Assembly: GCA_964016885.1 (NCBI GenBank)
Contig: OZ024745.1
Location: forward strand, 17,980,001 to 18,044,000
Length of the DNA stretch: 64,000 nucleotides
Origin: Eledone cirrhosa
Lineage: Eukaryota
Direction of reading: 5' to 3'
Numbering within the stretch: position 1 is the first letter of the stretch; each line of letters opens with the position of its first letter. Below, piece after piece: positions 2,748-62,009 of the stretch. Made by a program: the position numbers and the translations under genes. The notes below the pieces were generated by a model that saw only the letters and a program-made list of their open reading frames with translations, was not told the origin of the DNA and ran no database searches.

Positions 2748-3159
2748 CCCAATGATCTCTGGTAAGATCTGGGTCATCGCTTGCTACATTGGATGTCGAA
2801 AGATAATCGTCCCCAGGCAGGCCAAAGGTCAATCCGCAGTCCTCGCGACCCCTCTCTGACCGTCAGATCATCCATATACGTACAACCCGCACGGCAGTTG
2901 TATTGCATTCACTCACTGCGCTCAGCAGCCCGGTCCTACTGGTCAACAGCGCTACTCGATTAAATCATTTTACATCTGTCTAAGGAAGGTGTTTCCTCTG
3001 CCCAACACCATCCAACCGATCAATTCATGCTCAAATTACCCTTAGAGCGGTGTAGTGCCATCAAGTGGGTGGATGTTGTCACACCTGCCGTAGAGGTATA
3101 AATGGGTATTTTCCCTGCGAAGGGTTCCAGAGGGATGTCGTTGTTTGTGTTATAATGGA

Positions 3160-5642
3160 TCAGCTAGTGTTGGGTATGTAGTATAGGGTGTGTTTCTGGT
3201 GTTTGATGCTAGATGTGGTGTTAGGTTCCAGTCCGACATTGCTATATATAGGGCTTAAATTTTGGAAGGAATGTCTGAGGCGGTGCTGGCAAGTTGCAAA
3301 CACCTCAGATTTTTTGTTAAGTAGGTTACGGTTGGAGAAGATAATATTGTGTGTCTCTAGTATACAGAGGTTACAGAATTTATTAGGTGGTTTGTACGAG
3401 GTCGCGCTGCCTATCACTTCCCATTTGAGTGTGTATGGTTTATTTTTAGATTTTAGATAGTGTATGTAGCTAGAAAGTGAGGTGGAGTTGGCTAGGCTGT
3501 GCTTTTTGAACGAGTGGATGTGCGAGTTATATCTGATTTTGAAGCAGTTAGAAGTGGAGCCTACATAGGTTTCTGAAGAGTTATTAGTCGTGACTGTGCA
3601 TGAGTATATGACATCCTTGGTTAGGCATTTTTTATCTAAAGGGCAGGTTCTATTAGCTCTACAGTTACAATTATTCTGTGCGTTAGTCCGCTGGTTATAA
3701 TGCAATGCGGAAGTCTGTGTGGTGGATATAGGATTTTGGGTGTTCGGGTTGGCAACCCTGGTGTTATTACTTATACTAGTGTTATTTCTATTGTTACTGC
3801 CGTTGCTATTGTTGCTTGCTACAGTGGTATTTAGAGGGTTTGCATCCTGTTGTGATTTTGTTTGTTGGAAGTAAGAACTAATTTTACTATTATTGCTGCT
3901 AGCTATGTGGTATGCTAAGTTAGGCGTCGTAGAGTATGAGATTTTAATGGTGTTTTTGTTTAAGAGGTTGTGGTACTTGTGTCCTAGAGGGAAGTTTTTA
4001 TCTAGTAGTGAGAAGAAAGCCCTAGGTATGTTGGTGGAGACATTTAGGTTGAAAGGAGGGTTGAAAAATGTATTATTTCTTCTTCTATTTTTGCTTTTAG
4101 TGTTTGGTGTGTTGCTTCCTCCTAAGGCCTCACAGTAGTTTCCATGGTAATGGTTACTTCCTGTGGCACCCTCCGCTTTGGTGTACTTGTGGTTGCTATT
4201 CCTATTATTAGATTTCCTCATGGACATGTTGTGCGAGATTATGTTGTAGCTATGTGTTTTCTTAGGTAGGAACTCAATTTCTATATTATGGCCGGAGCTA
4301 GCTAATGCTTGATTGTAATATTGTGAGTTTTTGCTAAATATGTTTGCGTCATAGGACAGACTAGAGATTCTATTGGACACCCCCTTAGAGATAGAGTTTA
4401 ATATTGATCTAGGGTGATTAGACTTGGTATCTACGTAAATAAGTTTCTCATTAGGCTTATGGAAAGGTGTATATATTTTTGAGTCTAGGTATAGTGTGGC
4501 GTCTAGGAAGTTAACATTTTTAGTGTTTTTGTCCATGGTGATACTAAGGTTAAAGTTTTTGAATGTCTTATGCAGTTGTTTTCTAGTTCTTTCTATATTA
4601 AATTTTTTATATTCTATGAGTAGAAGTGCATCATCGCGGTACAAACCACCGTTGAGGTAAGGGAGGTCTTTATGGATTTCATTGAGGAGGTATAGGCCGA
4701 CCAAATCAGTGACCTGCGCCGAGTCACTAGATCCCATGGTTATGTCGAAGTTGTTGTGCGTATCCTTGCGTGTCCATAGTTGGTCCTCGACGGTGATTAT
4801 GGTTTTACGGGCCGCAAGGATGACATCAACCTGGGCTCTAGTCAGGTCGCTATTGGTCATGGCCATGATAAGTGCCTTATTTAATAGGATAGGGGAAATA
4901 GAGATGTAGTATGAATTGATATCAAATTGAATAAATTTGTTGTTCTTATTATTCTTGATATCCTTAAACCATTCAATTACTTCACCCGTATTTCCCCATT
5001 GTTTAAGGTGTATCTTGTGTTTAATTTGTGGGATGATTTTATCCAAAATCTTCTTGCTGATAATACCAATGTCGGACTTGGAAGGGCAGATAAGTCTTAT
5101 CGTGGGGTTGCTGATGAAGTTCTCCTTATGGTCCTTCAGAGAGAATCTAGGGGGGTTCGGAGTGAAAGGTTGTGTATGCCTCTGTAGTCCTAGTTTAGAC
5201 ACTATATTATAACCCTCTACATTAATATCTTCTAAGTTTTTCAAGGTGGTTTTTTTGTAGCTTTTATGTAGTTCATTATATATAAACTTTCTATAAGTAA
5301 TATAATCTAGGCTGTATGTGTTATTAGTTTTATCTGCGTGTACAATAATTTTATTACTAGTTTTGAATCCACTAATAGAAGTGTTAAGTTTGTTTAAGAA
5401 GGTGTTGCTTCTAATATGGTGCTTATTGTATTTAATGTTCTTAACTAGTTTAACTAGGTCATTTTCAAAGGAGTTAAGTAGAGTGTTATGAGGGGGGCTT
5501 TTAAAGGTTTTAAAGCCGAAGGAGTCAAAATTGTTAGTATTATTCAAGTTGTTAGATTTGTTTCTATCATAATGGAATGTCCTCCATCTCACTCTATTGA
5601 TAAATGAATTTACACTGTTGATCAGCAATTTCTCATATGTAT

Positions 5643-5661
<19 letters not shown>
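3160..5661 (-). CDS. Naiad PLE polyprotein: reverse transcriptase + GIY-YIG endonuclease (833 codons, no stops; extreme N-terminus replaced by the inverted pLTR)
   Basis: FINRVRW..FGFKT..PP..FENDL N-terminus, ADKT motif, QFDINSYY (motif A), MGSSDSAQVTDLVG (B'), GLYRDD (C), FLD, CNCR..CPL..CL knuckle, VIY..TYVG, CNLC, LLNKKSE..CQH. The track start is a TTG lying inside the inverted repeat. Confidence 0.93.
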
Positions 5662-7094
<1,433 letters not shown>

Positions 7095-16704: not shown

Positions 16705-17077
16705 GATATAGATAGGTAAATATACACGGGTGTGTATGATTGTGTATAGAAGATTATATTAATAAGAGGAATTCCAACTTTGTCTGATTTACTCGTTTTA
16801 TTTACAATCCTTTAAAATATATATAATGGTATTATAATGAAATAGTATGATAGAATATTAAATTCTAAGTGTTAATTGAACAAGTACTTTCATGCTTTCG
16901 CAATCTTCAGGTTCATGATATGTGGTGACAGTCGAGTTTGCAATTTTCAACTGTAATGAGATGGGTAAATTTCCTACCTTTTATACATTTTATACAGAGA
17001 AAAGTGGCTCCAGAATGCAAAGCCCTGTAAACTGTATTTCGACCAATCAGTGTGTAGTTTCACTGAATTACTACAGC
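16705..17077 (-). repeat. 3' pLTR of the Neptune element
   Basis: Near-identical to 20920-21292 (offset 4215). Confidence 0.95.
16877..16915 (-). ncRNA. Minimal type I hammerhead ribozyme, intact core
   Basis: tgaac-CTGAAGA-t-tgc(gaaa)gca-t-GAAA-gtac-TT-gttca; palindromic loop III. Confidence 0.85.
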
Positions 17078-17292
17078 TGATTGGTTTAAGCGTCACGGCT
17101 GGTTGAGCATGCTAACGACCAATAGTCATATCCAACGTATCAATTGTTTTGCTTTTTGAAATGATGAGAATAGCATTTTCTATTAATCATCACCATCAAC
17201 ATCACTTTTATTATTATTATTATTGTTGTTGTTGTTGTTGTTGTTAGTGGTCGTGGTCATAGTGGTAGTAGAAGTAATACCCCTAGGCGTTA

Positions 17293-19630
17293 TTATTGTT
17301 CATTTAGCTTGGGTTTGAATTTATCAATAAAATTCTTTTCTTTGATTTTTCTCTTGATTTCACTTGGGCTGTGTAATTTGTAGAATGGGAATATTATAAA
17401 TATTCCCTGACCACATGTTGCCAGGTGGCCGCTTAGGGGTATCTGACGGACATTTGGGTCTCTGATTTGTTGACGGTGTACCCGTGCACGTTCCGATAGT
17501 GCATTTCCAGTTTGACCAACATATAGTTCTTCACAATTCGGGCATTTAATGCAGTAAATTAGATTTCTGCTTTTGCAGTTCATATTTGCATTTGGGAATA
17601 TTTTTCCAGTTTTGTTTTCATATATTGACAGGCGTGTATGGATTGACATGTGCCGCATCGATTATCATTGCATTTAGATACAGTGAATGATTGGTCTTTG
17701 TTGTTAAGGTCAAACTTTGCTTTTGTTAGCAATTGCTTCAAATTTTTTGGCTGTCTTTTACTAAGAGTCAAAGATCGATCTGTGATTAAGCCTTTTAATT
17801 CATTACTTTGAGCAATGATCGGTAGGTTTGCTTTGGCAGTGTTGAAGATATTCTGGTGACATGGGTTGTGTGTCATTATAAATGGTATGACCAGTTCTTG
17901 GTTTCTTCTTCCTTGGGTTGTTCTAAGTTGTTGTATAGGTATTTTTATAGCCCGCTGTATGCCATTTTCTATAAGTAGAGATGGGTATTTTTGTTTGAGC
18001 AAAAATTCTCTTAGTTCTGTTAGGCGTTTGTACCTGGTATTCGTATCTTCTACAATGGTACAAATTCTTCTGGCTAGGCAGTATGGGATGTTGCGTTTTG
18101 TATGATGGCACGGTGGATGGCACGGTGGATGGCACGACTTAAAATTCAGATATTGATGGGTGTCTGTGTGTTTATAATATATATCCGTGGGAATGGTGGT
18201 GTCGTTTTTGATTATCATTATATCTAGGAATGGTAATTTGGTCCTACTCATCTCTTTTGTGAATTGGAGAGATGGGTGTAGGTTATTCAGGATGATATTG
18301 AACTCATCCAGAGTATCTAGAGATTCTGTCCAGATGATGAAACAGTCGTCAAGGTATCTCTTCTAAAATGTTTCAATGTACTTTCTAAAGCCAGTGCAAT
18401 ATTTTTCCTCTATTTCTTGGTAGAGTTGTTGTTCTAAGTATCCCATTACAGAGTTTGCGTAAACGGGAGCAAACTTCGTTCCCATCGCTGTGCCTCTAAT
18501 TTGGATGTAATTCTTTCCATTGAAGAAGAAAGTGTTGTTTTCCAGAATAAGTTTAACTGCGTCTAATATAAATGGCGCTGTGAATCTAATGGGAATCACT
18601 TCTCTATGTTTTTCCACCCAGTATTAACCGCCTTTATTCCTAAATCATGTGTAATGTTGGTGTAAAGGCTTACCACATCAAAACTGAGTAGAAGTGAATT
18701 CGTTTCCGTGGTTTTGGGAAGATGGGACAGGAAGTCGATATCATCCCGGATAAAACTGGGTCTGTGAATACATAGTGGTTTCAAAATAATGTCAACAAAA
18801 TTGCTTAGACGGTGAGTGGGGCATGTTGGACCAGCTATAATAGGTCTAAGTTTTAAGTCTTTTGGGTGTAATAATTTAATGTACTCACTGTTTTGTTCTC
18901 TTACTGCCAGTTGTATTTCTTTTGACTTGTGAACTTTCGGTAGGCCATACAGGTTGCTGGGTTTCGGCTCAAAATTGGTGATGTAGTCTCTTTCCTTATC
19001 AGTAAATGAGTTGTGGTATTTTGAAGCCAGGTTGTTGATCTTCTTCATGATGTTGTGGTCTATATTTGACGGTATTTCATGATAGAATGTTGTGTCTTTC
19101 AGTTGTTCCTCAACCAAATCCTTGTAGTATTCAGTATCCATTATAACAACTGCACCCCCTTTATCTGCTTGTTTAATTATTATTGTTTTATCATTTTGTA
19201 TACGTTTAAGTGCAGACATTTCTGATTTGTTAATGTTTGGCCTAACATTAGTATTATGTCTAAGAGGAAATTTAGACAGGATGTCAATGTATTGGTCGAG
19301 ATAGATATTTCTTCCTTTTGGCGGAGTGAAATTTGATTTATTCTTTACTAGTGATTCATCACTCTCATTATTTTTATCAGCGAAGAATTCTACAAGACGT
19401 AATTTTCGACAGAATTCTTGGGTATCCTCCTTCAGTTCTTGGTGGTTGACTGTTGGAGTCGGTGTGAATTTCAGTCCTTTTGACAGAATTTGCATTTCAT
19501 CATTGTCAAGATCTCTTTTAGATAAATTAATTATTTTAGGATCTACGTGTACAGCTGTTTTGGGTATGTTTCCTCCTGGAGTTTTTCTTTTTCCGGTTTT
19601 TGTTGTCCTGACGTTAAAACATGAATTTTT
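17293..19630 (-). pseudogene. Neptune ORF2: RT + zinc-knuckle linker + GIY-YIG, broken by frameshifts and a stop
   Basis: [89 protein letters not shown]; spread over track ORFs 18596, 18363, 17580 and 17293. Confidence 0.92.
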
Positions 19631-19882
19631 CTCTGTTCAGGATTTATATTCCTGTTGGTGTTCGCTTGATGAACGTTTGGTCGTGATATTATATTTGGTT
19701 TCGTTATGTATTTTGTCCTATTTTTGGTATTCTGTATATTATTTTCCTTCCTGTTAGCATTATTTTTAACAACTGGGAAAATGACTAGGTTTGCTTTCAG
19801 GTTTAGATCGCTTTTTCGTCCAGTTTCTTGTGGGCAATCTCTGTTGAGATCTTGAGAGTGATCTGGTTATTCTACGTTTTGT

Positions 19883-20887
19883 TTACACATTCCTTGTTGG
19901 TAGTCTCTGTTGAGATCTTGAGAATGATCTCCTGGTTTTACTACTTCTCATGGTCTGGTCAAAGGAATACCTATCGTGTTTGTGCTTTTTGTTCATGTTG
20001 TGTGCGATAGGGTGTTTTTGTAGAAAAAGCGAAGAGTTATTACCGTAGTTCTTCTTTGATTCGAGGTAAGGTGAGTGTTTGTGTTGGCACGTGTTCTGGC
20101 GTATGTTGTGTTGATGAGATTGTCCACTTTTAATGCTTTTTCTCAGGGTTCCAGAGTCTTTACCGTAATTTGCAGCATATTCATCGAGAAATAATTGTTT
20201 CTGCTGCAATACCTTTCTTGATTTGTTTTCTTCTTTTGAGATATCTCCGATCCATAGTTCTCGTAGTTTTTCAGCTATAATACCAGTCGTTAGCTTTGAA
20301 ATTTCAACTTCAATTTGGTCATCAATAGCTTCATATTTGGCTTTGTAGCGGGATTGTTTACATTCAGAAATGGAGATGTCGGTCCTGAATGTTGTCAATG
20401 TAAGTTCCCATCGGAGTTTTGTTTCTTCTTCTGGTTCTCCTGCAATTTCTGTAATTAGGTATTTACGAGGGAGTATGGGTGCCGTTAGAGAGAGCCATTT
20501 CGAATGTATTTCGACATATTTTTCGCATCTGTATGCTTTCCAGAAATTTTGTTTTCTTATGTTATGGAATTTTTTCCATGTCTTCCACATTTCTTTTCTT
20601 ATTCGATGTGTTTTGTTTTCCAAATTTCTTTCGTTTATTTCTGACATCCAAGGGGGTTGTGGTAGGCTTTCTCTTGTATCTTTGATAACTGTTGGTATAA
20701 TTTCAGCTAAATTCTTAATTTCAGAGTTTATATGTTCAGTTATAAGTTTGCCGTCTGTAGATTGTTTTTCTATTTCCTTTAAAATAGAGGATTGTGTGTC
20801 CATCATCGTGATAAGTGTTGATAATTTCGATATCTCCTTTAGAAATCTTTCTGATTCTGTTGGTTTCATTTGTTGCTTTCCAGACAT
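19883..20887 (-). CDS. Neptune ORF1, helical/coiled-coil-like protein of unknown function (originally ran to ~19543; premature stop and frameshift)
   Basis: 334-codon ATG-initiated ORF between the 5' pLTR and ORF2; the in-frame repeat SRSQQRLPTRN recurs past the stop. Confidence 0.75.
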   Translation of the reverse strand: MSGKQQMKPTESERFLKEISKLSTLITMMDTQSSILKEIEKQSTDGKLITEHINSEIKNLAEIIPTVIKDTRESLPQPPWMSEINERNLENKTHRIRKEMWKTWKKFHNIRKQNFWKAYRCEKYVEIHSKWLSLTAPILPRKYLITEIAGEPEEETKLRWELTLTTFRTDISISECKQSRYKAKYEAIDDQIEVEISKLTTGIIAEKLRELWIGDISKEENKSRKVLQQKQLFLDEYAANYGKDSGTLRKSIKSGQSHQHNIRQNTCQHKHSPYLESKKNYGNNSSLFLQKHPIAHNMNKKHKHDRYSFDQTMRSSKTRRSFSRSQQRLPTRNV

Positions 20888-20919
20888 GTTGGCATATACA
20901 CAATAGGAATATATATATA

Positions 20920-21292
20920 GATATAGATAGGTAAATATACACGGGTGTGTATGATTGTGTATAGAAGATTATATTAATAAGAGGAATTCCAACTTTGTCT
21001 GATTTACTCGTTTTATTTACAATCCTTTAAAATATATATAATGGTATTATAATGAAATAGTATGATAGAATATTAAATTCTAAGTGTTAATTGAACAAGT
21101 ACTTTCATGCTTTCGCAATCTTCAGGTTCATGATATGTGGTGACAGTCGAGTTTGCAATTTTCAACTGTAATGAGATGGGTAAATTTCCTACCTTTTATA
21201 CATTTTATACAGAGAAAAGTGGCTCCAGAATGCAAAGCCCTGTAAACTGTATTTCGACCAATCAGTGTGTAGTTTCACTGAATTATTACAGC
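20920..21292 (-). repeat. 5' pLTR of the Neptune element
   Basis: Near-identical to 16705-17077; ends about 30 nt upstream of the ORF1 ATG. Confidence 0.95.
21092..21130 (-). ncRNA. Minimal type I hammerhead ribozyme (5' pLTR copy)
   Basis: Identical to 16877-16915. Confidence 0.85.
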
Positions 21293-21395
21293 ATATATAA
21301 TGGTGATGAGTTAGTTTTGCGAGGTTTTTGATATTCTGGCAATATTACACAAATATGACCCTCCCAAGTATAACAATATATAAAGTATAACATCT

Positions 21396-22162
21396 CGGAA
21401 GAAGGAGACATAAACACCACTTTCTACCGCAAAGCAGCGTGCAAGGACTTATTTGTGCATTATAACTCAGCCCTCCCCAACAACGCTAAGAGAGGCTATG
21501 TCCTAAATGAACTGACACGGATCACTAACAGATGCAGCGACCCGATGGGTGTTCTCACCCATACCACGCAATTCCGTAATCTACTCAGATCTAATGGTTA
21601 TCCCAAGCGACTGATTAACGGAATTAGAGACCCCAGACCCAGTAGACTGACACCCACTAGAAAACTTAATATTAGCAGGTGCTTCTTTAAAATCCCCCAC
21701 CTGAGTGAATATACCACGAACGCCATCCGCAGGGCCATACGGACGGAGGGACTTGACATACATTTGGCCCACACAGGACCTTCGCTGCGAAGATGCCTCT
21801 CCAACAAACCCTACGAGGCAGATGGGACGTGTTCCCTCAGCAACTGCCCGATACGGGGGGTAGATTGCCTACGCACCTATGTCGTATATAAGATTCAATG
21901 CGATAAATGTAACAAGTTTTACATAGGTAGCACCATCCGACCCCTACATGTTCGTATCAAGGAACATATCAACACCAACGCATCTTCCTTCCGTAAACAT
22001 ATCCTTAAATGCGGAAACCCACAGGGTAGACCCTTGGTCACAGTCCTAGCGACTGAACGCAGCATCGGATCCTTAAGGATAAAGGAAGCACTTGTTATTA
22101 AGAACCTCAGACCCCCACTTAACAACCGGGCTGAGAGAAATGAGCTGACATGGCTAACTTAA
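21396..22162 (+). pseudogene. PLE RT thumb + GIY-YIG fragment
   Basis: FYRK..HYNSALP..NGYP..CSLSNCPI..C..VVYKIQCDKCNKFYIGST.RPLHVRIKEH..EALVIK..PPLN. Confidence 0.88.
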
Positions 22163-22950
22163 CCATAATGACCATTCACAGCCTACGGCCTGCTATCTTC
22201 ACACACACGCACGTATATGCATACCCATACGCATGCACACACACTTCTATATTTTACACGCACACATGTTTTTACAACCTACCACCTTTCACACCCTTTG
22301 ATTTCCAGCTTCTACAGCCCACTATCTTTCACACACAAACGCACTCACACATATACACACACAGTTACACACACACATGTATACCCATACGCTTACACAC
22401 ACACACATCTATATTTATACACGCACACATATTTTACAACCTACCACCTTTCACACCATTTGATTTCCAACTTCTACAGCCCACTATCTTTCACACACAC
22501 ACACACTCACACATATACACACTTACACTTATACACACACAGTCACACACACATATATATTTACATACACATATCTTACGGCTTTCACACGCTAACGCAC
22601 CCTCTTGATTTAACCCATTTGGTCAGTAGCTTTTGCCACAGCTTATCACGCGCACGCGCATTCTCTCCCTCGTTTAAATTTTAAATATTTTTCTCCCCAT
22701 AACGGCATTCCTGTCTTAACGACATCACCACTTTCTCCGCTTGGCCTGTTTTCCCCCCTTTTGGAACTTTTCCCCCGTTGATGGGCGTGAGCCCGAAATA
22801 TTGGGATTAAATCTCTACTACGGTAACCCTTCTACCTTTGTTTTGTTTTCATCTTTGTCTCTCTCTCAACTTTCACTTTCACCTGTTTTTCCTATCTATA
22901 TTTCACTTCCTACCTCGAGATTTCCCTTTGCATTGTTGTGGCTTTCTTAA
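21396..22950 (+). mobile_element. 5'-truncated PLE (Nematis-like), thumb + GIY-YIG plus CA-rich 3' UTR
   Basis: Coding to 22162; ~165-bp tandem duplication in the UTR; degenerate hammerhead at 22771-22806; ends near (TA)n. Confidence 0.8.
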
Positions 22951-22955
22951 ATACG

Positions 22956-22996
<41 letters not shown>

Positions 22997-23102: not shown

Positions 23103-23141
<39 letters not shown>

Positions 23142-23146
<5 letters not shown>

Positions 23147-23815
23147 AAAATACTGCAGGTAGCACATGGATAACATGTAATAAAATGAGTCCCTCATCAG
23201 TGATTTGCCGACGATCATAGATATTTCATTGCATTAAAAATCATATACCTCACGTCGGTGCAATAATAACCAAAATAAGTTATTAGGACAATTAAAACGC
23301 GTAAAGCGAGTGAGACAGGAGAACAACAAAGAGTATGGCTAACCAGGGGAAAGAAACAAGCTTCAAAAATTATTCTGTTTAGCATAAGCTAGGTGAATAT
23401 ATGAGCGCTTTAGAACAGACCCGACACGAGCGATGGCTATGTGAGGAGAGAGAAAAATAGCCATCGTGGTGTACAGGATGAAATGAAGAGAAGAGAGAGA
23501 AACAGTGAGTGAGTGAAAGTGTGAGGAAGAGTTAACTGACATGACAGAGGGGGAGAAACAGAGAGAATGGGGGAACAGTAAGAGAGAGAGAAAAAAACAC
23601 AGAATCGCAGTGGTAAATATATGTAATAAAATATAGAGAAAAATACTGCAGGTAGCACATGGATAACATGTAATAAAATGAGTCCCTCATCAGTGATTTG
23701 CCGACGATCATAGATATTTCATTGCATTAAAAATCATATACCTCACGTCGGTGCAATAATAACCAAAATAAGTTATTAGGACAATTAAAACGCGTAAAGC
23801 GAGTGAGACAGGAGA
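23142..23815 (-). mobile_element. Non-coding partially tandem element (493-nt unit, identical 181-bp direct repeats), retrozyme-like
   Basis: 23142-23322 is identical to 23635-23815; homologous to 29205-29926 in both the repeat and the pyrimidine-rich interior. Confidence 0.75.
23194..23264 (-). ncRNA. 71-nt structured RNA motif with permuted hammerhead core words (second copy at 23687-23757)
   Basis: Ungapped alignment to 29255-29325 with compensatory changes in three helices. Confidence 0.65.
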
Positions 23816-24526
23816 TCAAGCTAGTGGTGGCTTGTTCTGTTCATGCGTCGGAACTGATTCCATTTTATTGAAGAGTTTGATATTCTGAATATCTACAGTT
23901 TATTGCTCATATTTTAAGTAAATAATCAATTAACATGCTAATAAACGGTATACGTACTACGTAGACACTCTATAGACGATACATCGATATATATATAACT
24001 TTTATCTGATTTTATCTGATGAGGACTTACTGAAAAAACAGTACCTCCGAAATATTTATAATAAAATATGAGTTGATTACGTTGAACGTCTATATTTATT
24101 AATATTTTGAATTAATATATATATATATATATATCAAATACTCCCACATATAAATAATCTCTCATAGCTTAATAAGTAAACCACCTGTAGCTATAAGACA
24201 TCTTCAGCGTTATCAAATAGCTTCATAGATACACGATACCTTTATATTCAGGCAACCATTACTCCATTTATTGCCATAATATTAAGTCAATAACTTAGTG
24301 ACTATCCATTGCTATCCTTCATGCTTGATAAATGTAACTCTGAGATAAATAGATCGATGTATCGTCTATAGAGTGTCTACGTAGTACGTATGCCGTTTAT
24401 TAGCATGTCAATTGATCATTTACTTAAAATATGAGCAATAAACTGTAGATATTCAGAATATCAAACTCTTCAATAAAATGGAATCAGTTCCGACGCATGA
24501 ACAGAACAAGCCACCACTAGCTTGAT
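23815..24526. repeat. Inverted duplication, arms 23815-23988 and 24353-24526
   Basis: 174-bp arms with about 4 mismatches; the spacer holds a hammerhead tail and (TA)n. Confidence 0.9.
24012..24061 (+). ncRNA. Minimal hammerhead motif in a short PLE tail (23990-24115)
   Basis: ttat-CTGATGA-gga..tactg(a6)cagta..tcc-GAAA-tat-TT-ataa. Confidence 0.65.
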
Positions 24527-25929
24527 TACTAGGTCTGGCAGAGATTGTCTAGCAAGTAAGAACGAATAAATAACCTTAATAGAAATACTGCAAAATGTAC
24601 GAAAGGTTAAAATATATCAGACTGCTTCTGCCCTTGTTTGCCAACATGGACTGTATACATACAGACATGATAGGTTTAGATGTATCATACAGAACAGCAG
24701 TTTTATTGGAAAAGAACACATTTCACAAAAGGTATGAACATATAACAAAGAACAATCACATTGGGATATGTTAATTCATACAGACATTAGGAGTGATACT
24801 AGGAATACAAAATATCGCATAATCGATGTATCTATTCCAATAGACGATATTATTTTTGAGTAAAGTGCCAAAAATGTGAAGATAATAAACACTTGATCAT
24901 AATAGATAAACAGAACATGGCGATAGTCAAAACCATCTCCATAAATAAATAGATTAAGCGATGTCAAAAATATATACCCAGCACATCATATCTTAGATAT
25001 ATAAACGACTCATTAATATTAGCATTACTGGACGTTGTATATGCATGTCATAGAGTATGTGGAATATAGAAGTAAGGAAAATGAGGCTGATTGCATTCAA
25101 AGCACAAGGATATCCGCTCGAATGCGCATCGGAAGTAAATAATATCAGCACAATTATTGTATTAATATTAATGATATCACGCATTTAATGTATATTTCCA
25201 GATGATTCCCTGATAACGTCTGATAGTATGGTCAGTAAAGATATCACTACGCAGGTTGGTATTAACAAGTTGTAATAAAGAGAAGAAAGCCGTGTAAAGC
25301 ATGAGGGAATTAAATTATATGGATATATTCACCATAAATTTAATAACAGTGGAGAATGTTTAACATCCATGAAGCTGTGTTGATATACATTATATACTAA
25401 AGACAGGGGTGATAGACGAATTTTCAATATCTCAAGCACCAGATTGTATGAGAATGAAGGGTAACTATATTATTCAACCATGGCAGAATAATATAGAAGA
25501 AAAGAAGGTTTAAAATAAATATAAGAAGATACACAGATTGAAAGAAAAATGAATCGTAATTGTGTTCTATTTGCTAGTGATTCGAACGATATGTTTTAAG
25601 TGGAAATATAAACGGATATTGGGAAACTATGATTCGGAATTAACGCAAAATAGAACAAACTAACTACCATATCATGTTTGACGCCAGCAAAAGAATATTA
25701 ATAGGATACTGTAGGGTTGTATAAGAAAACATATCTGATTGTAACCGGAAATTTGGAATCACATTAATAAGTAATAATATAACTCTCAGCTCTATCATGT
25801 TCTGAAACACAATACACCACCCGGTCCAAGAATCGAAACCACGACCTCATGATCGTGAGACGACACGCTAAACACTAGGATCTGTTTATTTCATATGTGT
25901 AGATTGGTGTTATATATTATTACACGGAA

Positions 25930-26114
25930 CGGTGGTTTGGCAGTATCGGTAGAGCGTCAGATACCATGCTTTTCAGTATAGAGTTATGGGCCTTTGTGTT
26001 CTGAGTTCAAATCCGCCAAGGTTACTTTGTCTTTCATCCTTACAGGGTCTATAAAATAAAATACCAGTGATGCACTGGGGTAATCGCTGGCCTTGTGCCA
26101 AAAGTAGAAAAACT
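25930..26114 (+). mobile_element. tRNA-derived SINE
   Basis: Same head, core and tail as 6912-7094. Confidence 0.8.
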
Positions 26115-26567
26115 ATATATTATTACACGAAACCATAATACAGTATGCCTCATGTTGATGATGTTTGGAGTAGATATAAGATAATAAAGACGAAAGCACA
26201 AAGCCAAAGATAATTAGAGCACATCATAATAACCTAGTAAAAGCAAATGAGATAATCTTTCAGTTTTCAGTTTGGGAGTATTTAAACTATGTAAATCAAG
26301 TTAACAACAGTGATACCAGATTACGTATGAGCAAAGAGAACCTCTTAAATATATATGTAATCTTGGTATATTCCCTTCATTGTACTCATGGGAAAATTCC
26401 AATAGCTTGCACTATACAAATGATTGAATCAGGTAGTAATTCCCAGCTTTAAGGGAAATATTAGTCTTGATAATTGTTCTGCCTCGGGCCATAGAAAAGT
26501 ATGTTGCTTGACATAGAATTTACTGCAGCTACGTAAATAGTTTTTATTTTAGTATATATCAAATTGG

Positions 26568-26781
26568 GGCGGTGGATTGGCAATATCGGTAGTGAGTCGG
26601 ACACCATGCTTTGCAGCATATAGTTACGGTCCTTTACTGTCTGAGTTCAAATGCCGCTAAAGTTGACTTTGCTTTTTACGGAGTCGATAAAATAAAGCAC
26701 CAGTAACATACTGAGGTCGATTTAATCGACTTACCCATCCCCCTCCAAATTACTGACCTTGTGGCTATACGAGAAATCATT
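26568..26781 (+). mobile_element. tRNA-derived SINE, longer subfamily
   Basis: Same core plus the extra gtcgatttaatcgac hairpin and C-rich segment before the tail. Confidence 0.8.
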
Positions 26782-28460
26782 AAATATATCAAATTCTTAT
26801 ATATTATATGTAATTTTACTATGAATCAACATATTTAGTTTACAGAGTTATCGGTAGTGATAAGTATAGAATATTTCCCTTTTGTTTACTCCCTCAAATT
26901 TAATGGATGCACAATATTGCAGTACAATACCAGTATAAGAATAAACGTATAATCATGTTTATTAAGTCAAGCCGACATAGTAAATTTACTAAAATCATAT
27001 TAATGAATTGTTTTAAACGTACTTGCTTTAATGAGGTCGCTTCACATATTAAGGAAAGTGGGTTTCACTATATCTCAGATAGGACTAGACGCAGGCATGT
27101 CTCAGTTTTTAAGAAATGTGCACCCCAAACATGAGTTGGGGGACTAGTTGATCATCGAACTTCTGACACATCATCGTCAACACCGACTGAGAATCCATCA
27201 ATCATCCTCAATACATTTGAAATTGTTAGAGTAAATATTTTATACTCAGTGAATATTTGCCGTGATAGATTAATCCCAAAGAACAGCTTACCTACAAATC
27301 CATTTTCAAACAATATTTTAAACACGTTAATAAATATTTCTAAATATATTTATGACTATGACATTGAAATCTAAAATTATGTTGACGCTCTAATCACAAT
27401 ATAGTGAAATTGTATTCCTCTCTGGTCTTGAAAATAACTTTTCTGCAATTGAATTATTTTCTTTGTAAATAATGAAATTAGTTGGAGGCTAAATTGAAAT
27501 AATAACGAAAATATATTTGCCAAATAGATAGCTATGTTAATATTCAGCCTGTGTTTGACAATTGCCATATAAATGCATGCATTGTTATCCACAATCAGAA
27601 TATAAATTGCCATATATAAAAAGAATTATATTGTAATATTCTCTTTTGTTGGGTTTTAAACAGATTAGCGTGTTACTTAATCAGAAATTATATAAATTAT
27701 TTTCTAGTTATGTCAACATATTTTCAAATATAATTTGAAAAAATAAAGGACTATTTTATTTTCATTCCGTAAACGGGCAATCACGATAATTTAATTTTTG
27801 TCGTGTTCCCAAAATGATCTTAACATAAATTATGTATAAAAATACCCTAGATTTTCATGTTTCCGTTTTCTTCGGTTAAAACAGAATGAAGATATTAGAC
27901 AGTGTGATGCCATACCTGATGCAACGGATATTGCACACTATGTTCGGCGGCACCATTTTATCTGCATAGTGCAGCTGCGATATGCTGTCCAACAAAGTGT
28001 GTACAGTTAACAATCGCAAATACAACATAATGCAAATATCACTATATGTAGCATTATGTATCAAAGAAGTGTGATCAAAGAAGAACCACATGAAAACCAC
28101 AAAGATAGTTTTACTTTAGATGATATATAGCTTTCCTTCACCAACGATATTTATTTAAATACTTATTTACACACAAAAATCAAAATGATTAACATCTTCC
28201 CAGATACCTTTCTTAAATCAAGCGACAACTTATCACGTTTGATATGATTACCTAGGAAGCGTCCATAAACTTCTATAAGTGCCCTAAATTATTCAAACAT
28301 GGTGTTTTCCATTCTGGCATTAAGCATTATGGTAAATCTTGATTATTTTTTTTCTTTTAATCTTTTTACTTATACGCGGTATATAAACATATCACTTTTG
28401 TAATGTTTTGTAATAACTGAATATCATTATATACGTACAGGGCCAATACTGCCAATTCAC

Positions 28461-28639
28461 ATTGGCAGTATCGGTAGAGGGTCGGACGCCATGATTTCCA
28501 GCATAGTTACGTCCCGTTATGGTCTGAGTTGAAATCCTGTCAAGGTTAACTTTGCCTTTCATCCTTACGGGGTCGATAAAATAAAGTAACAGTAATGTAC
28601 TGGGTAATTGCTGGCCTTGTGCTCAAAGTAGAAACAATT
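28461..28639 (+). mobile_element. tRNA-derived SINE
   Basis: Same family; a 10-bp inverted copy of its 5' end precedes it. Confidence 0.82.
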
Positions 28640-29067
28640 ATATACAAATATAGCAATGATACATACTCCGTAAAACTAAATAAAGAAATTATTTGACACA
28701 TTTAATTGTAGAGTAATTGTTTCTAATGGATTACAATAAAATCTCTATGCACCTACATACACCTAGTATAACGCCGCCTTCGATCCATCATCTTGAAATA
28801 GTAGCCAGATGTGCATCAAGCGGTTACTACCTGTACTTAGAAAATCAGAACTTAGGTATACTATAATTCTAGATATAGTATCTTTTTTAATTTATTAAAT
28901 AAATACTATACCTAGAACGGATATTTATATATATATATATATTTGTAGTAAGGTTGCTGGATGCGTCCATAGGCAGTATGCCGGTTGATCACTCATTGCT
29001 TCTTCGGATCAGAGTATAATAATATGGAAAACGAAGAATCAGTGATGCATCGGAACACAATTCATTA

Positions 29068-29160
29068 ACGTATTACAATTGTTTCTCCAGCGAACAGCTC
29101 GAGGTGCGATCTATTTGTGGATCGACACTGACTCTGGATTCGCAAGTTCCTCCGATACGT
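29068..29160 (-). ncRNA. Type I hammerhead motif with long stem II in a PLE tail (28945-29190)
   Basis: acgtat-CGGAGGA-..tccag...ctgga-GAAA-caattg-TA-atacgt; U4G core change. Confidence 0.6.
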
Positions 29161-29204
29161 ATAGTGACTTCGAAGCAAAGCCTCTGTACATATATATATA
29201 TATA

Positions 29205-29923
29205 TACATGTCTCTCTTTCTCCACCCAATTCTTTTTATCCCAATAACTTATTGTTCGCGCTGGTCTGAGGTATCAGATCTTTAATGCGAAGAAATACCT
29301 ATGATGGCCAGAAGATCACTGATGATGGATAGTCCTGGCTTCTTGCTCTATTTTTTAATTCACATGTATCACTTTCGCAACAACGCAGTACGCCATTTTT
29401 CATTCCTATATTTTTCCCTTCGCTGTGTCTTGTCTTTTTCTCTTCCCTTACTGCTATCCTCTTTCTCTATCCACCTTCTCTCTCCTTGTATCTCTTACTT
29501 TCAATCACCCCCTCTGCTTGTCACCCTCTCTCAGCTAGCCACTTCCTCCCACTTTCACTCACTCACTCTCTACTACTCACCCTCTCTCACTTCCACCCGT
29601 CTGACCCGTGTGAAATTCTTTTCTCGCTCACATTTTTCATGGCTTGGATGCGTCTTTCGTCTTCTCATCAAAGATTCGCTAGATCTTATGTTCACATGTA
29701 TCACTGACGTGTTTTCTCATTTTCCACTCTTTACGTTGCCTCACCATTCTTGATTGTTTACATGTCTCTCTTTCTCCACCCAATTCTTTTTATCCCAATA
29801 ACTTATTTTAGTTATTGTTCGCGCTGGCCTTAGGTATCTCATCTTCAATGCGAAGAAATACCTATGATGGCCAGAAGATTACTGATGATGGATAGTCCTG
29901 GTTTCTGCCTCTATTTTCTTATT

Positions 29924-29926
<3 letters not shown>
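29205..29926 (+). mobile_element. Non-coding partially tandem element (~560-nt unit, ~150-bp direct repeats), retrozyme-like
   Basis: 29205-29354 resembles 29759-29917; flanked by (TA)n on both sides; homologous to 23142-23815. Confidence 0.75.
29255..29325 (+). ncRNA. 71-nt structured RNA motif with permuted hammerhead core words (second copy at 29818-29888)
   Basis: Same architecture as 23194-23264. Confidence 0.65.
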
Positions 29927-29954
<28 letters not shown>

Positions 29955-37391: not shown

Positions 37392-40300
37392 TCTATATAT
37401 ATATAAAACTGAAGATGTCTGTCTGTGCGTGTGTATGATGTTTATGCATTTCCACATGTCTCTACCGATTTTGATGGGGTTTTTTCCAATGTGCTCCAAA
37501 TTTACTGACGATGGTCAACGCGATACAAACTTTGCCAAAGATTTCCTGCTTCTATGAAAAAAATCTATAAAACTAAATACATGCTCTAACTCTCTCTTGC
37601 CACCTCAACTGCTGCGTCACGTGCTGGTGAGGACGAAGGGCAGCGTTCCAGACGCCGACGTACGGACGCCGCTACTTGAATCTCACCAAAGATATTATAT
37701 TTTCTTGTCCTTTTTGTAATTATATTTTTCTTTCTTTTTAGTAATATGAGAAAAGAAAATAATATAAATATTCTGATTAAAAAAAATAGCGAAAAAACTT
37801 TTTTCAACAAAGTATGATTTTGATGATTTTTTTTCCAGTGTGCTCCAAATTATCGCCCCTGTTTACGCTCTTTTGTGCTATAACTCAGGCGTGCTTGGCT
37901 TACAGGCTTGACCTACTATTTGACGTGCATTCTTGCTACAACTTACTTAGTACTCAATTTCCACTTATTCACTGTTCAATTGAAATTTTTCGCTACCCCC
38001 TTTTTTGCTCCATTACCTGCATAAATATTTACGTGTTCAGTTTAATTAGTACTTCTTGTTTCCCTTTTTAAACTTACTTTTAAAATATACATTGATACTA
38101 CGGTCATGCCACCCAAGAAAAGACCACGACTTAGTCGCCAAACTAAAGCTGCTTCTGTTGACAAACGAAGAAGAGCTACAGAGTCGTCCCTCGAGAATTT
38201 GACTCGGTTGTAACAAAATGCAACTCGAAATGCAATTTCCCGGTCAACCGAGACAGAAAAACAGAGGAGCATTCGGCTTTCTGGGAATGCATTTCTAACT
38301 GCAGTTGCACGTGCAGCGCAAACTGATGAACAATATTCTCGACGACGAAGCAAACATGCTGCCTCCACTGCTGCGGCGCGTGCTGGTGAGAACGAAGAAC
38401 AGCGTTCTAGACGACGAGGAAAAGATGCCGCCTCAACTGCTGCGTCACGTGCTGGTGAAGACGAAGGACAGCGTTCCTGACTCCGACGTACGGAGTCCGC
38501 TTCAACCGTTTCTGCGCGCGCGTCAGAGACTGCGCAAATTCGATTACACAGACCAAACGCCAATGCACTCTGCAGGAGTGCTCAACGATGTACTCCGAGG
38601 ATCTGTTGTACTCAGTGGTCTCATAAGGCTTTCCACTATGGCCCTACATTTATCTATGCACTGCTGCCAATTGAAATTGTCAAAACTTATTGAACTCATA
38701 CAATCAGGTAGGGCCTTTTGACATGTTAGGTGCTACGTATACACCGTTGAGTAGCAAAAGAGAGGCCTCCCACACGCCCACATGCTCATTTGGCTAATAA
38801 CGAAAATCAACGCCAGCAGCATTGACAGCATTATTTCAGCAGAAATACCCGACTCGAAATTGGACAGAGAACTCCTCAACATCGTCACTGCTCACATGGT
38901 TCACGGGCCATGCGGAAACGGTTTCAACATGATTTCGCCATGCTTTAAAGAAAGAAGGTGCACTAAGAGGTATCCAAGGCAATTCCTCCGAGAAACTCGG
39001 ACAGGTGGTGACGGTTACACATTATACCGCCGTAGGGAGCCAGAGGACGGAGGACTTGTTGCGAAAACCTCAAATCATCACGTCGACAACCGGTGGATTG
39101 TACCCCACTGCCGACTTCTGTTTAAAATGTTTAACACCCACATTAACGTTGAATACTGCCACTCCGTCAAATCAATAAAGTACGTCTGCAAGTACATCAA
39201 TAAGGGGTCCGATACTGCGTGTTTCGGTCTTACAATGGAGAACAGCCGAGACGAAATCACTCGATGCCAGGTCGGCTGATACATCAGCAGCAATGAAGCG
39301 TTCTGGCAATTCTTCCACTCTGCAATACACCATAACTACCCCCCAATCAAACAGTTGGGGGGTGCACCTCGAAAACGTTCAAATAGTCTACTTCACCCCC
39401 TCCACCGCTGCTGAGATAGCAGAGGAACCCAAGGACACCACACTTACGGGTTTTTTAAGTTATGCCGAAAGGATCCCTTCGCCAAGACCCACTTCTACTC
39501 TCATGCGCCATCATACTACACTTGGAACACAGACAACAGAATTTGGTTAAGAAGGGTGAAAGGACAACCCGTCGAGGGACATCCAGACATTAAAATCTCC
39601 CCTAACCTTGGGAAAGTCTACACAATTCATCCTAACCAACAGGAATGCTTTTATCTCCGACTTCTACTGCATGAGGTGGTAGGACCGACATCTTTTGACG
39701 ATCTGAAAACAATCAACTGAGAGGTTTGTACTTCATTCCGCGCAGCCTGCTTTAGACGGGGTCTACTGGAAGATGGCGCTCAGTGGGATTCAACATTGGC
39801 GGAGGCAGCTAAATTTACGCTCAGCGTGAAGTTTTCGACAACACTTTGCGGTGCTACTACATACATGCGTGCTAAGCGACCCTGTATCCTTATGGGAGAA
39901 ATACAAAGAGGACCTTTCCGATGACTACATACACCAAGGACAACTGCTACTCCCTCATTCCGGCGTACGACTCAGCGACGAATTCTTCATCAAAGCTCTC
40001 ATTGACATCGAGAACAAAATCCTAACTGGCGGCGGAAATGGCCTTCCATTCTATGGATTGCCAAAGGTTCAGCGAACGGGCTTGGACAAACTTCCGACGG
40101 GCATAATTCAGGAAACTGCCTACGACGTCGACGCCCTCGAACTGTTCATCAACGAAAACGACCCGAAATTGTTGCAGGACCAACGGCAGGCGTATGACAC
40201 AGTTTGCACTTCCATCCTTCAACGCACAGGGGGTATCTCCTTTTTGGACGCCCCAGGAAGAACTGGTAAAACATTCGTCACTAAAATCCTCCTCGCCAGC

Positions 40301-40525
40301 GTGCGACAGCAAAAAGGAGTCGCGCTGGCTGTGGCTTCTTCTCGGATTGCCGCAACTCTGCTGCCCGGAGGTAGGACAGCTCATTCCACATTTAAACTAC
40401 CATTCAACGCGACTTCAGACGGCACAATAACCTGTAATATCACCAAGGACTCTGACAAAGCAGAAGTCTTGAAAAGATGCCAGCTAATTGTGTGGGACGC
40501 ATGCATAATGGCCTATAAATCTACC
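37392..40525 (+). mobile_element. Helitron, internally deleted and 3'-truncated
   Basis: A|TCTATATATATAAAA..GTCTGTCTGT..CCGATTTTGATG 5' end; no CTRR/hairpin 3' end seen. Confidence 0.85.
38106..40525 (+). pseudogene. Helitron RepHel remnant (N-terminal ~23-aa repeats, HUH Rep, PIF1 helicase N-half)
   Basis: MPPKKRPR start, E*QKRGLPHAH (motif II), HGPCG, KYVCKYINKG (motif III), DAPGRTGKTF Walker A, GGRTAHSTFKLP, LIVWD Walker B; several stops and frameshifts. Confidence 0.92.
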
Positions 40526-41946
40526 ACGTAGATTCTGCTAGTCTGAGCTTTAAATTGACTTTGTATAAACTGATGAATTTCTTGTCAACTTCATCCAATG
40601 GATGACTCCGTGTCCCCATACTATGTAGTCCGCCATCACAGTAGATGCCAAACACTGTTGACCTGAAGGAAGTAAATATAGAGCAACACTAATGCTCAAA
40701 TGTATTTTAATACAAAACTCCCACAAGTCAATTTGTGATTACCTACATTATTCGTAAATAAAGCATTTTACAGAGATGTAAGATGTTCACTACTGTAAGA
40801 CATGTTAATCCTTGAGAAATGTTTAACCTAAATTGTTCTGCCAATATCACGAAAGTATATAATCTTAACAATTGAAAGTTTCATTTATCCTCCTACTTTT
40901 CCTCTAACAGAGAATCACTGTCGAATTAAATGATAACTCCGAATGCTTTATATTTTTAAATTTGTTCAATAATCTACAAACATATAATCTTATATTAAAA
41001 ATAATATATCTCTTGACAATAAGGCTTTCACGGAAAATATATCATATGACATATTTTCTATTTGTACAAGATCTGATGAAAATTATGTACTACTAACATT
41101 CCCAAATTGTCTCTGGAAATCGCATATTGTTTACATACGAACACGCTTTGTACAAATCTTGATAGAAACTAACATCTTCACACACAGCTTTCCTCTTGAT
41201 CATATAGAAGAGTTATCTACAGGCTCGTAATGACCTAGTAAATACGAAGACTAGAAATACTTTCAATGCAGACAAGTATTTATACTATTTTGAAATAAGA
41301 TTACTTTCAACAATGTAAGGAAATAAATTTGCGTCTAATTTTATGAACATGAAATAGAAGAAGGAAATAGTTGCACTGTATAATGTCTAAAGGAATCAGT
41401 CTTCAGTTCATATTGATTCCTTTCTTTTTCATATTCCGTAGTGTTAATGGATACTTTTATCGGATTAAGTAAATGAATGCACTTTAAATTTTTATAAATA
41501 TTTCCTGCATAAACGAGTTGTGTTCTAGCAACTATAATCGCTATTATCATAAACAAAATCTATATCGACAAATCTTCGAAGCTATTTTAATCCTCCTGTT
41601 TTTCTTTTTCTAAAGTGGTGGGAGTAGTATTATATAAACGTTCTGACAGCCAGTATGTCGTAAACATAACTAGGCTATCTAAGGGTATTTAAAATTGATA
41701 CCTCAAGACTTCCATACTATAATGAACGAATATGTATATATATATGTATATATATATTTATATATATATATTTATATAAAGTTTTAATATGGATGAGATT
41801 CTACAGGACTAGAACTGTTTCATTCTTTAGAAATCATATGCATTGAGTACCTTACTTACTGTTACTGTGGTTACCTCCGATTCAACCCGGAATAACGTAT
41901 ATTTATATATATATATTTATCTATCTATCTATCTATCTATATATAA

Positions 41947-43620: not shown

Positions 43621-44802
43621 TTATTTACTTATGTATACTTCTCTTAGGTCAGTGTTGTTTGTTTGGGTGTTGTTGTTATTCCATTCATTCTTTCTATTTA
43701 GCCTTGGTCTTCTAAGTTCTATTTCACTGGCCTCTCTGATTTGCCTATCTGCTGGGTCATTTCTATGTTTAGATATTATTCTAATTTCTATGTTGTCTAT
43801 GTTACCGTCATATTGTTGTCTAGCATGTTCGTATGGTACTGACCCGTTTTTTCGTCCTTTTAGTTCCCCCCAGTGTTGGTCTATCCTTTCACCTATGCTA
43901 CGAGCTGTCTCACCTATGTATGTTGTTGTCATGTTTCTGCAAGTACCCTCTGTACAACTTATGCTATAGACTACGTTTCTAGTTTTACAGTTTATCCGGG
44001 GGTTCACCTTACATATGATACATTTCCTATTGGTACAGTGGGTTTTCTTAAAAGGGTAGGTTTTGCTGATCAGGGATTTTATGATGGTTCCTGGCTTTTC
44101 TACCACCTTTATTTTTAAGTGGGTCTTTCTCAGGGCCTTTCTACACTGGTTAGCTAATTTCCCTCCAGGGGTAGCGTCCACAAACATGACACTCTGGTAT
44201 CTCTGGTTGTCGTACCATGAGGTGGCTTTCCCTATCTTATGTCTAGCCCTATCTAAGCTATTCCATGATTTGCTCCTGTATAATGGGCAAATTCCTTTCA
44301 TGTCCACTTCTATGAGGGTCTTATACTTCTCCATGGCTCCTTCGTATACTCTGATTCTGTCTCTTTGGTTGTAGCCAGAGAACTGCATGCGGTTGATGAA
44401 GTGTTGGATGTGTCTTTCCATTTCTGTTGGGTCGCACATGCGGCACACATTCTTTATCACTCGTACCACATCTGCGATCAGAATATTAAACTTAGCACTA
44501 CTGGACATTGCTGAGTTTTTGAGTATCAGGTATTTGGAGGCCATGGGTTTAGCATAGTATGAGTGGAGAATTTGGCCTCTCTCGTCTATGGTGTTAATCC
44601 AGAGTTCTGTGTCTAATACAGGTAGTCTACTGTTAGGGTGTTTGGAAAGGAAGTCGATAGTTACAGTTATTCTCTGGTGTATGGAATTAGCTATCTGCTG
44701 GATGCTTTCCATCGTGCTACGTTCTAAATCAAACTTGTTAGTGTTCTCTAGTGGGGGTGTTCTTATAACTATATTGATATCGTCTACATAACGAGAGTAC
44801 AT
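43621..44802 (-). pseudogene. PLE RT (from YVDD) + GIY-YIG fragment, open frame
   Basis: RYVDD, LPVLD, YYAKPMAS, SGY, C..RKCIIC..C..NVVYSISC..YIGETAR..RQIREA..LNRKNEW. Confidence 0.9.
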
Positions 44803-44913
44803 CTGTTATTAATTCTGGCAATATTACACAAATATAACCCTCCCCAAGTATAACAATATTTGTTTCGATACACGATTTCATATAAAAAACCTCGCAAAAC
44901 TAATTCATCGCCG

Positions 44914-60876: not shown

Positions 60877-62009
60877 AATTCCATATATGGTAAAACTGAT
60901 TGTCACAAGGATTGGTCAAAAGTTTGTTGTTGAGACACATAATGCTATCATGGCAATTTGTGGAAGGAAGGGGTAGCTGAACCTGCCAGTAGAAGAAAAA
61001 GGGAGAGGGAGTGGAGGAAACCTAGTCGTGCGTTAATAGTGCCAACTACAGCAGGGCAGAAGGTCAAGCAAGTATACTAGGGAGGGGGAGGGGGAGTCAA
61101 AACAATAAGTAAATCAATATGGAGTAAATATATAGAAGAATACCAACAATGTTAAAAATATAAAAAAACAATTTCTGGTGACTATACCCTAACGACAGTC
61201 ATCAAGTCTCTCACTGGTACTGCTAAACTATAGGAAAGTTTACTAGGTGGGACGGAATTGTAATGAGACCATTTTAAGAGTTAGTAGTAATCAACCGAGT
61301 ATATCTTACGGTGACAGGTCAACAAGTGGGTGCCAAAATACTAAAGAAACTACCACGAAATAATAATTCAGATCCCGAAACTAATACAAAATAAATGTGT
61401 CAACCCTAGGCACAAGGCCAGCAACCACCCAGTGCAAAAAATAAACTAATACGAAATAATAATTCAGAATCCCGAAAATGAATACTAATACTATCTCTAA
61501 GGGTGCCGCTACGATACAAAAATTCTAGTGCAAATTACATAAATGCTCGTACGAGGTATGTGAAAAATTTGATACGGAAAATTAATTCAGAACCCCCCCC
61601 CCCCCTAAAAAAAAATACTGATATACGAGAAATTAAAGCAGAGATACCACTAAGAAATGTAGAAAGCACGGAAATGGGGCAGCCATCGGATAAGAAAGTA
61701 AGTATCTGGGGTCTATCACATCTGCTATAAAAAGCGGAGTCGGCCAATTCTATCATAGAATAGGGGATGGGGGTGGGGGTACTGAGGCTACAAAGGACCG
61801 AGGGGCTACCTCGGGTGGGCGAGAAAAGGAAAAGGACGACGACAAAGAAGGAGGACTGGGGAGGAAGGACTAAGAAGGGATGGGGTGGAGAAGAAAATAT
61901 AGAGGAAACGATAAAAAGATATAAAAGAAGATCTTACGTCTACCTTTGCAAGCAGGGGTTACCAGTGGGGTGTTACAGCCCTTGTCTACCCCCCGGTCAT
62001 TATGGGGTT

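Follow-up and report, generated by a model that had tools for sequence, protein, structure and literature searches.

Dispersed non-coding tandem families with a putative S-G-C hammerhead in Eledone cirrhosa: a retrozyme-like system probably tied to Naiad Penelope-like elements

Introduction

Metazoan retrozymes without long terminal repeats (non-LTR retrozymes) are ribozyme-bearing tandem elements for which copying from RNA circles has been modeled (PMC7229834), and their ribozyme is a hammerhead of type I. A different order of the hammerhead blocks, type SGC, was defined by Eckert et al. (2023; PMC10085705), by whose account no such ribozyme occurs in the genomes of known organisms, bar one weak bacterial candidate. 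A third group, the Naiads among the Penelope-like elements (PLEs), is described in PMC8557442 as being without canonical hammerheads and long inactive in cephalopods. The present analysis concerns a window of 64,000 nucleotides (nt) from the octopod Eledone cirrhosa (assembly GCA_964016885.1, contig OZ024745.1, positions 17,980,001 to 18,044,000, forward strand) and two insertions within it, copy A on the minus strand and copy B on the plus strand, which a first-pass annotation had proposed to be members of a retrozyme-like family. They belong to dispersed non-coding families whose units each carry a predicted S-G-C ribozyme; we consider it likely that these families stem from Naiad and are copied at microsatellites by a Penelope-type enzyme from self-cut, re-ligated RNA circles.

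A Putative Hammerhead Motif in S-G-C Order

When copies A and B are compared, the hammerhead blocks follow one another as cleavage site, GAAA, and CUGAUGA, which is the type SGC arrangement. Along the strand the motif runs through strand e, hairpin h, strands a and b, UGA, stem III, the predicted cut, stem I, a linker and a′; it continues with GAAA and stem III, the bulge and GAU, b′, stem I, CUGAUGA, and e′. Stem II does not run on unbroken from the C block to the G block: it is a single pair, formed in 20 of 26 aligned motifs, beyond which a separate 5′ strand takes up each of its strands, in helices e and a. The motif reads as a putative hammerhead whose blocks stand in the non-circular order S-G-C and whose stem II has given way to a four-way junction. 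An Rfam scan of the window returned no ribozyme among the 150 of 155 matches listed, which were low-complexity ones of the microRNA type.

A pattern for this arrangement, free of any pairing constraint, gave 9,114 matches in the genome versus 3 in the reversed control, and patterns for diverged forms gave 116 versus 3 and, for those with a Naiad-like stem III, 72 versus 0. When 26 motifs picked by hand out of several subfamilies were aligned, pairing held in 94.8% of cells (30–51% in slid controls), and 18 of the 34 pairs showed change on both sides, with such pairs in every helix, stems I and III included; this covariation is partly circular, because the structure was drawn from A and B. Across the core (CUGAnGA, GAAA, U16.1, and H17), 10 of 11 positions are invariant in all 26 motifs and G5 is kept in 25, some of these letters having been required by the searches that found the copies; position 17 is always A or C. 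Diverged forms were represented by 95 distinct motifs, chance matches included, from 90 of the 100 loci listed among the 116 matches. Of these motifs 44 pair at 9–10 of the 10 positions of stems I and III, compared with a mean of 12 and a maximum of 21 in 500 swaps. Core nucleotides that stay fixed while the stems covary across families imply selection for cutting.

Two other readings of the motif bear on this evidence. It could be a folded recognition signal for a Penelope protein, hammerhead-like in its letters and incapable of cutting; the splitting of stem II by the junction, the fact that most insertions cross the site uncut in the DNA, and the modest excess of 5′ ends at the site would all fit such a role. 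We nevertheless regard it as improbable, since the catalytic positions and the exclusion of G at position 17 hold in 26 of 26 motifs (G5 in 25) and since scrambled cores with full stems recur, as judged by eye, in 9 of 44 Naiad tails. The second reading, an ordinary minimal type II hammerhead (G-S-C) that uses the UGAU after stem III as stem I, can be drawn as a short alternative in both families and is almost certainly wrong: its stem III pair forms in 14 of 26 motifs, and its stem I shows no change on both sides and is broken in 7 and 10 cells at two pairs that compensatory change maintains in the S-G-C fold. Hairpin, twister, and hepatitis delta virus-like readings were dropped by eye, their conserved letters not being common to A and B. 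Separately, an old 5′-truncated family (L189–L218) has a Naiad-like stem III and a three-way stem II junction without hairpin h.

The internal loop of stem III fits a kink-turn of the box C/D type (consensus from PMC5689011; also PMC5061560 and PMC4382518), with a bulge of 3 nt, then G-A and A-G pairs, and a helix on either side, the standard kink-turn arrangement. The closing C-G pair is found in all 26 motifs and U-U at 3b:3n in 18, the first two bulge positions being variable; the bulged strand has G in 26, A in 25, and U in 26, and the partner strand G in 20 and A in 25. From these letters we infer a kinked fold of stem III, and such a kink would bring the far end of stem III to stems I and II, as the strand order requires. 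In the 703-nt family (L094, L106, L112, L122, L150), the partner strand carries a 2–8-nt insertion, which may represent either a complex kink-turn or loss of the kink.

The Two Insertions in the Window

The insertions and their parts are located as follows.

23142–23819, minus strand: copy A, 1.38 units of a 493-nt non-coding monomer, both motifs intact
23682–23782, minus strand: upstream putative S-G-C hammerhead motif of copy A, order e-h-a-b-kink-turn-S-G-C, predicted cut after 23737
23323–23639, minus strand: interior of monomer A, rich in pyrimidines and sharing homology with that of copy B
23189–23289, minus strand: downstream motif of copy A, likewise a putative hammerhead in S-G-C order, cut predicted after 23244, GAAA of the G block at 23227–23224, CUGAUGA at 23200–23194
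23214–23252, minus strand: predicted box C/D-like kink-turn (consensus of PMC5689011) in stem III of the downstream motif of copy A, non-bulged strand 23252–23250, bulged strand 23219–23214
23103–23146, plus strand: target tract bordering copy A on its 3′ side, (TA)n(GA)n
29190–29206, plus strand: (TA)n tract at the 5′ end of copy B
29205–29923, plus strand: copy B, 1.28 units of a 554–563-nt monomer, older, two damaged motifs
29238–29330, plus strand: first of the two motifs in copy B, with 9 nt deleted from hairpin h and a mismatch where stem I begins (its first pair), cut predicted after 29275
29792–29893, plus strand: second of the two motifs in copy B, with mutations at the kink-turn G and in one pair of stem I, cut predicted after 29838
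29927–29954, plus strand: target tract bordering copy B on its 3′ side, (TA)n

Most of what the first-pass annotation had read from these insertions was borne out. It had given each about 1.3 monomers, with units of 493 and about 560 nt, in agreement with the values above; the unit of copy B measures 554 nt from start to start and 563 nt from cut to cut because the first repeat is short by 9 nt. The structured motif sits in the duplicated part of both copies, as had been stated, and the repeats of copy A (23147–23322 and 23640–23815) are indeed identical, with 0 mismatches in 176 nt. Copy A is young and could in principle yield a full monomer from its two intact motifs; the repeats of copy B (29207–29360 and 29761–29923) are 87.7% identical. 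Both insertions proved non-coding, the longest ATG frame of copy A having 59 amino acids (aa) and the 150-aa ATG frame on the plus strand of copy B having no Pfam match at E 0.1. The proposed homology of the interiors was likewise upheld by a local score of 64, against 28.0 ± 4.4 and a maximum of 50 in 200 dinucleotide shuffles. The claim that both copies abut (TA)n tracts holds at both ends of copy B and for copy A at the 3′ end only, where a (CT)n–(TA)n compound is met and the junction falls about +97 to +102 past the predicted cut.

At its 5′ end copy A adjoins a separate insertion (23816–24526) with 182-nt inverted arms that are 97% identical. This insertion contains an ordinary type I hammerhead near 24008–24075 (plus strand), and its segment 24001–24134 is a dispersed repeat with 379 first-look candidates in the genome, often as inverted pairs; it likely represents a second, canonical PLE-derived family.

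Dispersed Families and Insertion Structure

Searches of the 3.0-Gb genome of the same species with A and B gave 4451 and 1584 first-look candidates, respectively. Among the 40 candidates scored per query, relatives of A were 94–98% and those of B 84–93% identical, and the copies are spread over many contigs. Sister families have units of 497, 531–533, 590, 630–637, and 703 nt; across the families the 493–703-nt units are dispersed tandem monomers, as in metazoan non-LTR retrozymes. The larger monomer had been put forward as a novelty, a point that falls away given that published vertebrate families span 51–972 bp (10.64898/2026.07.22.740005). The families have a GC content of 39–44%, under the ceiling of about 50% that applies to metazoan non-LTR retrozymes, and are 65–70% pyrimidine, and their longest ATG frames (32–150 aa) differ from family to family, none being common to them. 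Folded as circles, without a shuffle control, the monomers reached −78 kcal/mol (42% of bases paired) and −72 kcal/mol (38%), and a rod-like, viroid-type fold was dropped.

Insertions range from 0.2 to 10 units. Three arrays taken whole contain 10.1 units plus one inverted unit, 8.2 units, and 6.8 units and are flanked by (TA)n. Inverted 5′ segments were present in 10 of 28 B insertions and 2 of 13 A insertions, in a sample biased to long copies. In 24 insertions picked by position (the first 30 loci minus six duplicates of one insertion), a microsatellite was found at +66 to +131 past the predicted cut in every case, against a window background of 0.26. The 3′ junctions fall on short matches between element and target, the 3′ ends are fixed (commonest at +111 to +119), and the 5′ ends vary, element ends merging into microsatellites. 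With fixed 3′ ends and variable 5′ ends, the copies are not random circular permutations of one monomer, contrary to what had been anticipated for them. They resemble products of target priming that begin internally and are truncated at the 5′ end, after the Penelope pattern described in PMC8557442, internal initiation by a Penelope enzyme being reported in PMC11167929; the marks present are partial tandems, 5′ truncation, an inverted 5′ segment, and a microsatellite target.

Pieces of the 3′ untranslated region (UTR) or pseudo-LTR of an autonomous element, or else local duplications, might produce part of this picture. Penelope frames do lie near some copies, either downstream, on the opposite strand, or upstream on the same strand; most flanks were taken to only 1.5 kb, and Naiad reverse transcriptase (RT) remnants may escape canonical PLE queries. 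Yet the units close cut-to-cut on themselves without an RT, in up to 10 repeats, the 5′ flanks are unlike between copies located on many contigs, and all five same-strand upstream PLEs inspected are separate elements that end in their own 3′ region, with microsatellite or unrelated DNA between. The 3′-UTR and local-duplication explanations are thus already largely refuted and we give them very little credence. It is supported, as the first-pass annotation had held, that both insertions are members of dispersed, non-autonomous, ribozyme-delimited tandem families with Penelope-like insertion marks and, at the loci inspected, with no link to an RT frame.

Relationship to Penelope-Like Elements

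The PLEs of the window encode C-terminal endonucleases (GIY-YIG) and have no sequence in common with families A and B at E 1e-8. Their 3′ ends, as read in the window, carry ordinary compact hammerhead cores or none, and the S-G-C motif in no case, so that copying by the RT of a local PLE, as initially suggested, is not borne out.

A different partner is indicated by the supplement of Craig et al. (2021; PMC8557442), from which the last 230–280 nt of 44 Naiad consensus sequences were read by eye, nine others being left out. In Naiad_Obim and Naiad_Ovul the architecture is complete, down to an identical hairpin loop, and lies about 120 nt from the 3′ end, a distance that agrees with the commonest 3′ ends of the families described here. 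Three Acropora Naiads, and probably one from a ctenophore, have the S-G-C order without a clear kink-turn, and three Nippostrongylus Naiads have the order C-S-G; scrambled S-G-C or C-S-G cores with full stems were thus recognized in 9 of the 44 tails, and the other 35 held nothing that could be parsed by eye as a scrambled hammerhead. Bivalve and hemichordate Naiads share another conserved structured 3′ motif. A search of the E. cirrhosa genome with the Octopus Naiad 3′ end gave 8 matches against 4 in the control, none of them a Naiad. Canonical PLE queries, no Naiad protein query being used, found no contiguous RT upstream of the 90 diverged loci or of the 30 loci of the old three-way-junction family. 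Shared architecture and shared distance from the 3′ end suggest, with good confidence, that the ribozyme of these families was inherited from Naiad elements.

Further elements were recorded in the window. A young PLE at 1716–6678 has a 1-kb inverted arm that is 99.5% identical and an 833-aa frame with RT and C-terminal GIY-YIG at 3160–5661 (minus strand). A Neptune-like PLE with broken frames (16725–21292) lies between 353-nt direct repeats that are 99.7% identical, and 3′ parts of PLEs with C-terminal GIY-YIG and variant compact hammerhead cores are found at 21374–22960, 43621–44805, and 61032–64000. A Helitron-like remnant with Rep-like and PIF1 helicase matches occupies 38755–40531. A repeat of about 190 nt resembling a short interspersed element, its copies 75–90% identical, occurs at 6920, 25936, 26576, 28461, 32196, 45680, 51844, and 55956.

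Circular or Linear Templates

Insertions longer than about 130 nt span the cut site, and their template must therefore have been either ligated or uncut. In the proposed mechanism, a copy with two motifs would be transcribed and the motif would fold, the kink-turn bending stem III back toward stems I and II and the four-way junction standing in for stem II; covariation shows the pairing, and the kink is predicted from its letters. Cutting after AUA or AUC would very probably follow. A host ligase would then, rather probably and by analogy with PMC7229834, close the 0.5–0.7-kb monomer. A Penelope-type endonuclease may open a (TA)n or (CT)n tract, and reverse transcription would prime at a short match 66–131 nt downstream of the cut, consistent with the junction pattern, cross the cut site, travel round the template, and stop early or invert, giving insertions of the sizes seen, 0.2 to 10 units.

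A circular RNA template is only indirectly supported. Contigs of unknown kind from three sequencing runs show that the sequence is present and do not bear on expression. Under the circle model (PMC7229834), repeats that share an insertion should resemble each other more closely than those from separate insertions, and differences within versus between insertions amount to 7.5 versus 11.1 per 100 nt for B (20/22 pairs) and 0.9 versus 2.3 per 150 nt for A (44/54 pairs), or 5.4 versus 17.4 for whole monomers. The same families and ribozyme could instead be copied from uncut linear multimers of master arrays, with later local tandem expansion and with circles rare or absent. Alternating two-unit and mosaic arrays at C3:132.38 Mb, C3:100.08 Mb, and C1:111.79 Mb would follow readily from such a route, which is also in keeping with the slowness of published SGC ribozymes (0.007–0.13 per min; PMC10085705), the cutting in vitro of only one of nine Xenopus retrozymes (10.64898/2026.07.22.740005), the unfolded state of box C/D-type kink-turns without protein (PMC5689011), and internal initiation by a Penelope enzyme on linear RNA in vitro (PMC11167929). 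Private fixed variants in all but one of the sampled arrays of at least two units (1, 4, 0, 1, 2, and 3 variants) speak against linear copying, as does the selection for cutting implied by the fixed core and covarying stems, and we judge it unlikely, though the strongest of the alternatives.

Several observations weigh against copying of S-G-C-delimited circles derived from Naiad. Greater likeness of repeats within insertions is also expected from subfamily structure or local expansion, and two arrays alternate two unit types, with within-array differences of up to 13; such arrays would not arise from a single monomer circle. No clean peak of 5′ ends marks the predicted cut: in five-base windows, 205 fall at −4 to +1, 84 at −13 to −9, and 168 at +14 to +18, the three 5′-end patterns differing in length and family coverage and all being confounded by (TA)n microhomology. 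Counted by eye, unambiguous ends exactly at +1 are in modest excess (21 of 100 among the matches listed, versus 21 of 84 and about 6 of 100). The reduction of stem II to one pair is unlike the tested SGC ribozymes; in the diverged set helix b is weak (fully paired in 12 of 44 motifs, against a swap mean of 6.5 and maximum of 13) and the GA of the kink-turn is in place in 25 of 44; and the kink-turn G is altered in 6 of the 26 aligned motifs. Finally, the limited searches made here found no intact Naiad in the E. cirrhosa genome, though relatives of A are 94–98% identical.

An extension of the circle mechanism can be offered tentatively, as rather less likely than the mechanism itself. The kink-turn might gate cutting through a host protein of the L7Ae family (15.5K/Snu13), switching between cut monomer and stable circle; descendants of the Naiad 3′ end might have outlived their parent and been moved by another Penelope-like enzyme; and scrambled hammerheads might be normal in many Naiads. 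Were this so, the S-G-C order (octopus, coral, ctenophore) and the C-S-G order (nematode) would be that of the normal ribozyme of many Naiads.

Comparison With Known Systems

At least 9,114 copies of a putative S-G-C hammerhead are present in one animal genome as part of a retrozyme-like family, and literature searches, in whose coverage subscription journals were mostly not included, returned no SGC or kink-turn hammerhead in an animal retroelement. Rfam does not recognize the families and type I descriptors would pass over them, so that the number of animal retrozymes, and of the circular RNAs they form, is likely underestimated. The motif offers a possible answer to why Naiads seemed to be without hammerheads, a natural hammerhead with a built-in predicted kink-turn is a possible protein switch, and the question of which Penelope enzyme copies RNA circles becomes directly testable.

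The families appear to work like a non-LTR retrozyme whose ribozyme is a rebuilt SGC hammerhead tied to Naiad. Like metazoan non-LTR retrozymes (PMC7229834; 10.64898/2026.07.22.740005), they consist of non-coding tandem monomers of a few hundred bases and low GC, with one hammerhead per unit, thousands of dispersed copies, and a tie to Penelope-like elements. They differ in that the ribozyme is there of type I and here in a non-circularly permuted S-G-C order that does not conform to type I, so that type I descriptors would miss families A and B; in that circles are demonstrated there and here proposed; and in that the partner there is Neptune or Poseidon, whereas here Naiad is indicated. With the type-SGC hammerheads (HRIMA-1 and variants; PMC10085705) the motif shares the order, a full core, covarying stems I and III, and a short linker that joins stem I with the strand of stem II. 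Those ribozymes come from metatranscriptomes and have a conventional stem II together with a helix between stems I and II, whereas the present motif belongs to a chromosomal retroelement, has its stem II split by an inserted 5′ strand, and has a predicted kink-turn in stem III, the main text of PMC10085705 containing neither "kink" nor "k-turn". Box C/D-type kink-turns (PMC5689011) likewise have the 3-nt bulge, tandem G-A and A-G pairs, C-G closing pair, and U-U at 3b:3n; their context is that of guide RNAs, whereas here it would be a ribozyme stem, with G at 3n in some subfamilies. Naiads (PMC8557442) have in common with families A and B (TA)n targeting, partial tandems, and inverted 5′ copies, and the Octopus Naiad consensus sequences carry this motif near their ends, equally far from the 3′ terminus. 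Naiads encode an endonuclease and an RT and are described as long inactive in cephalopods, whereas families A and B lack any such frame and A is a young family.

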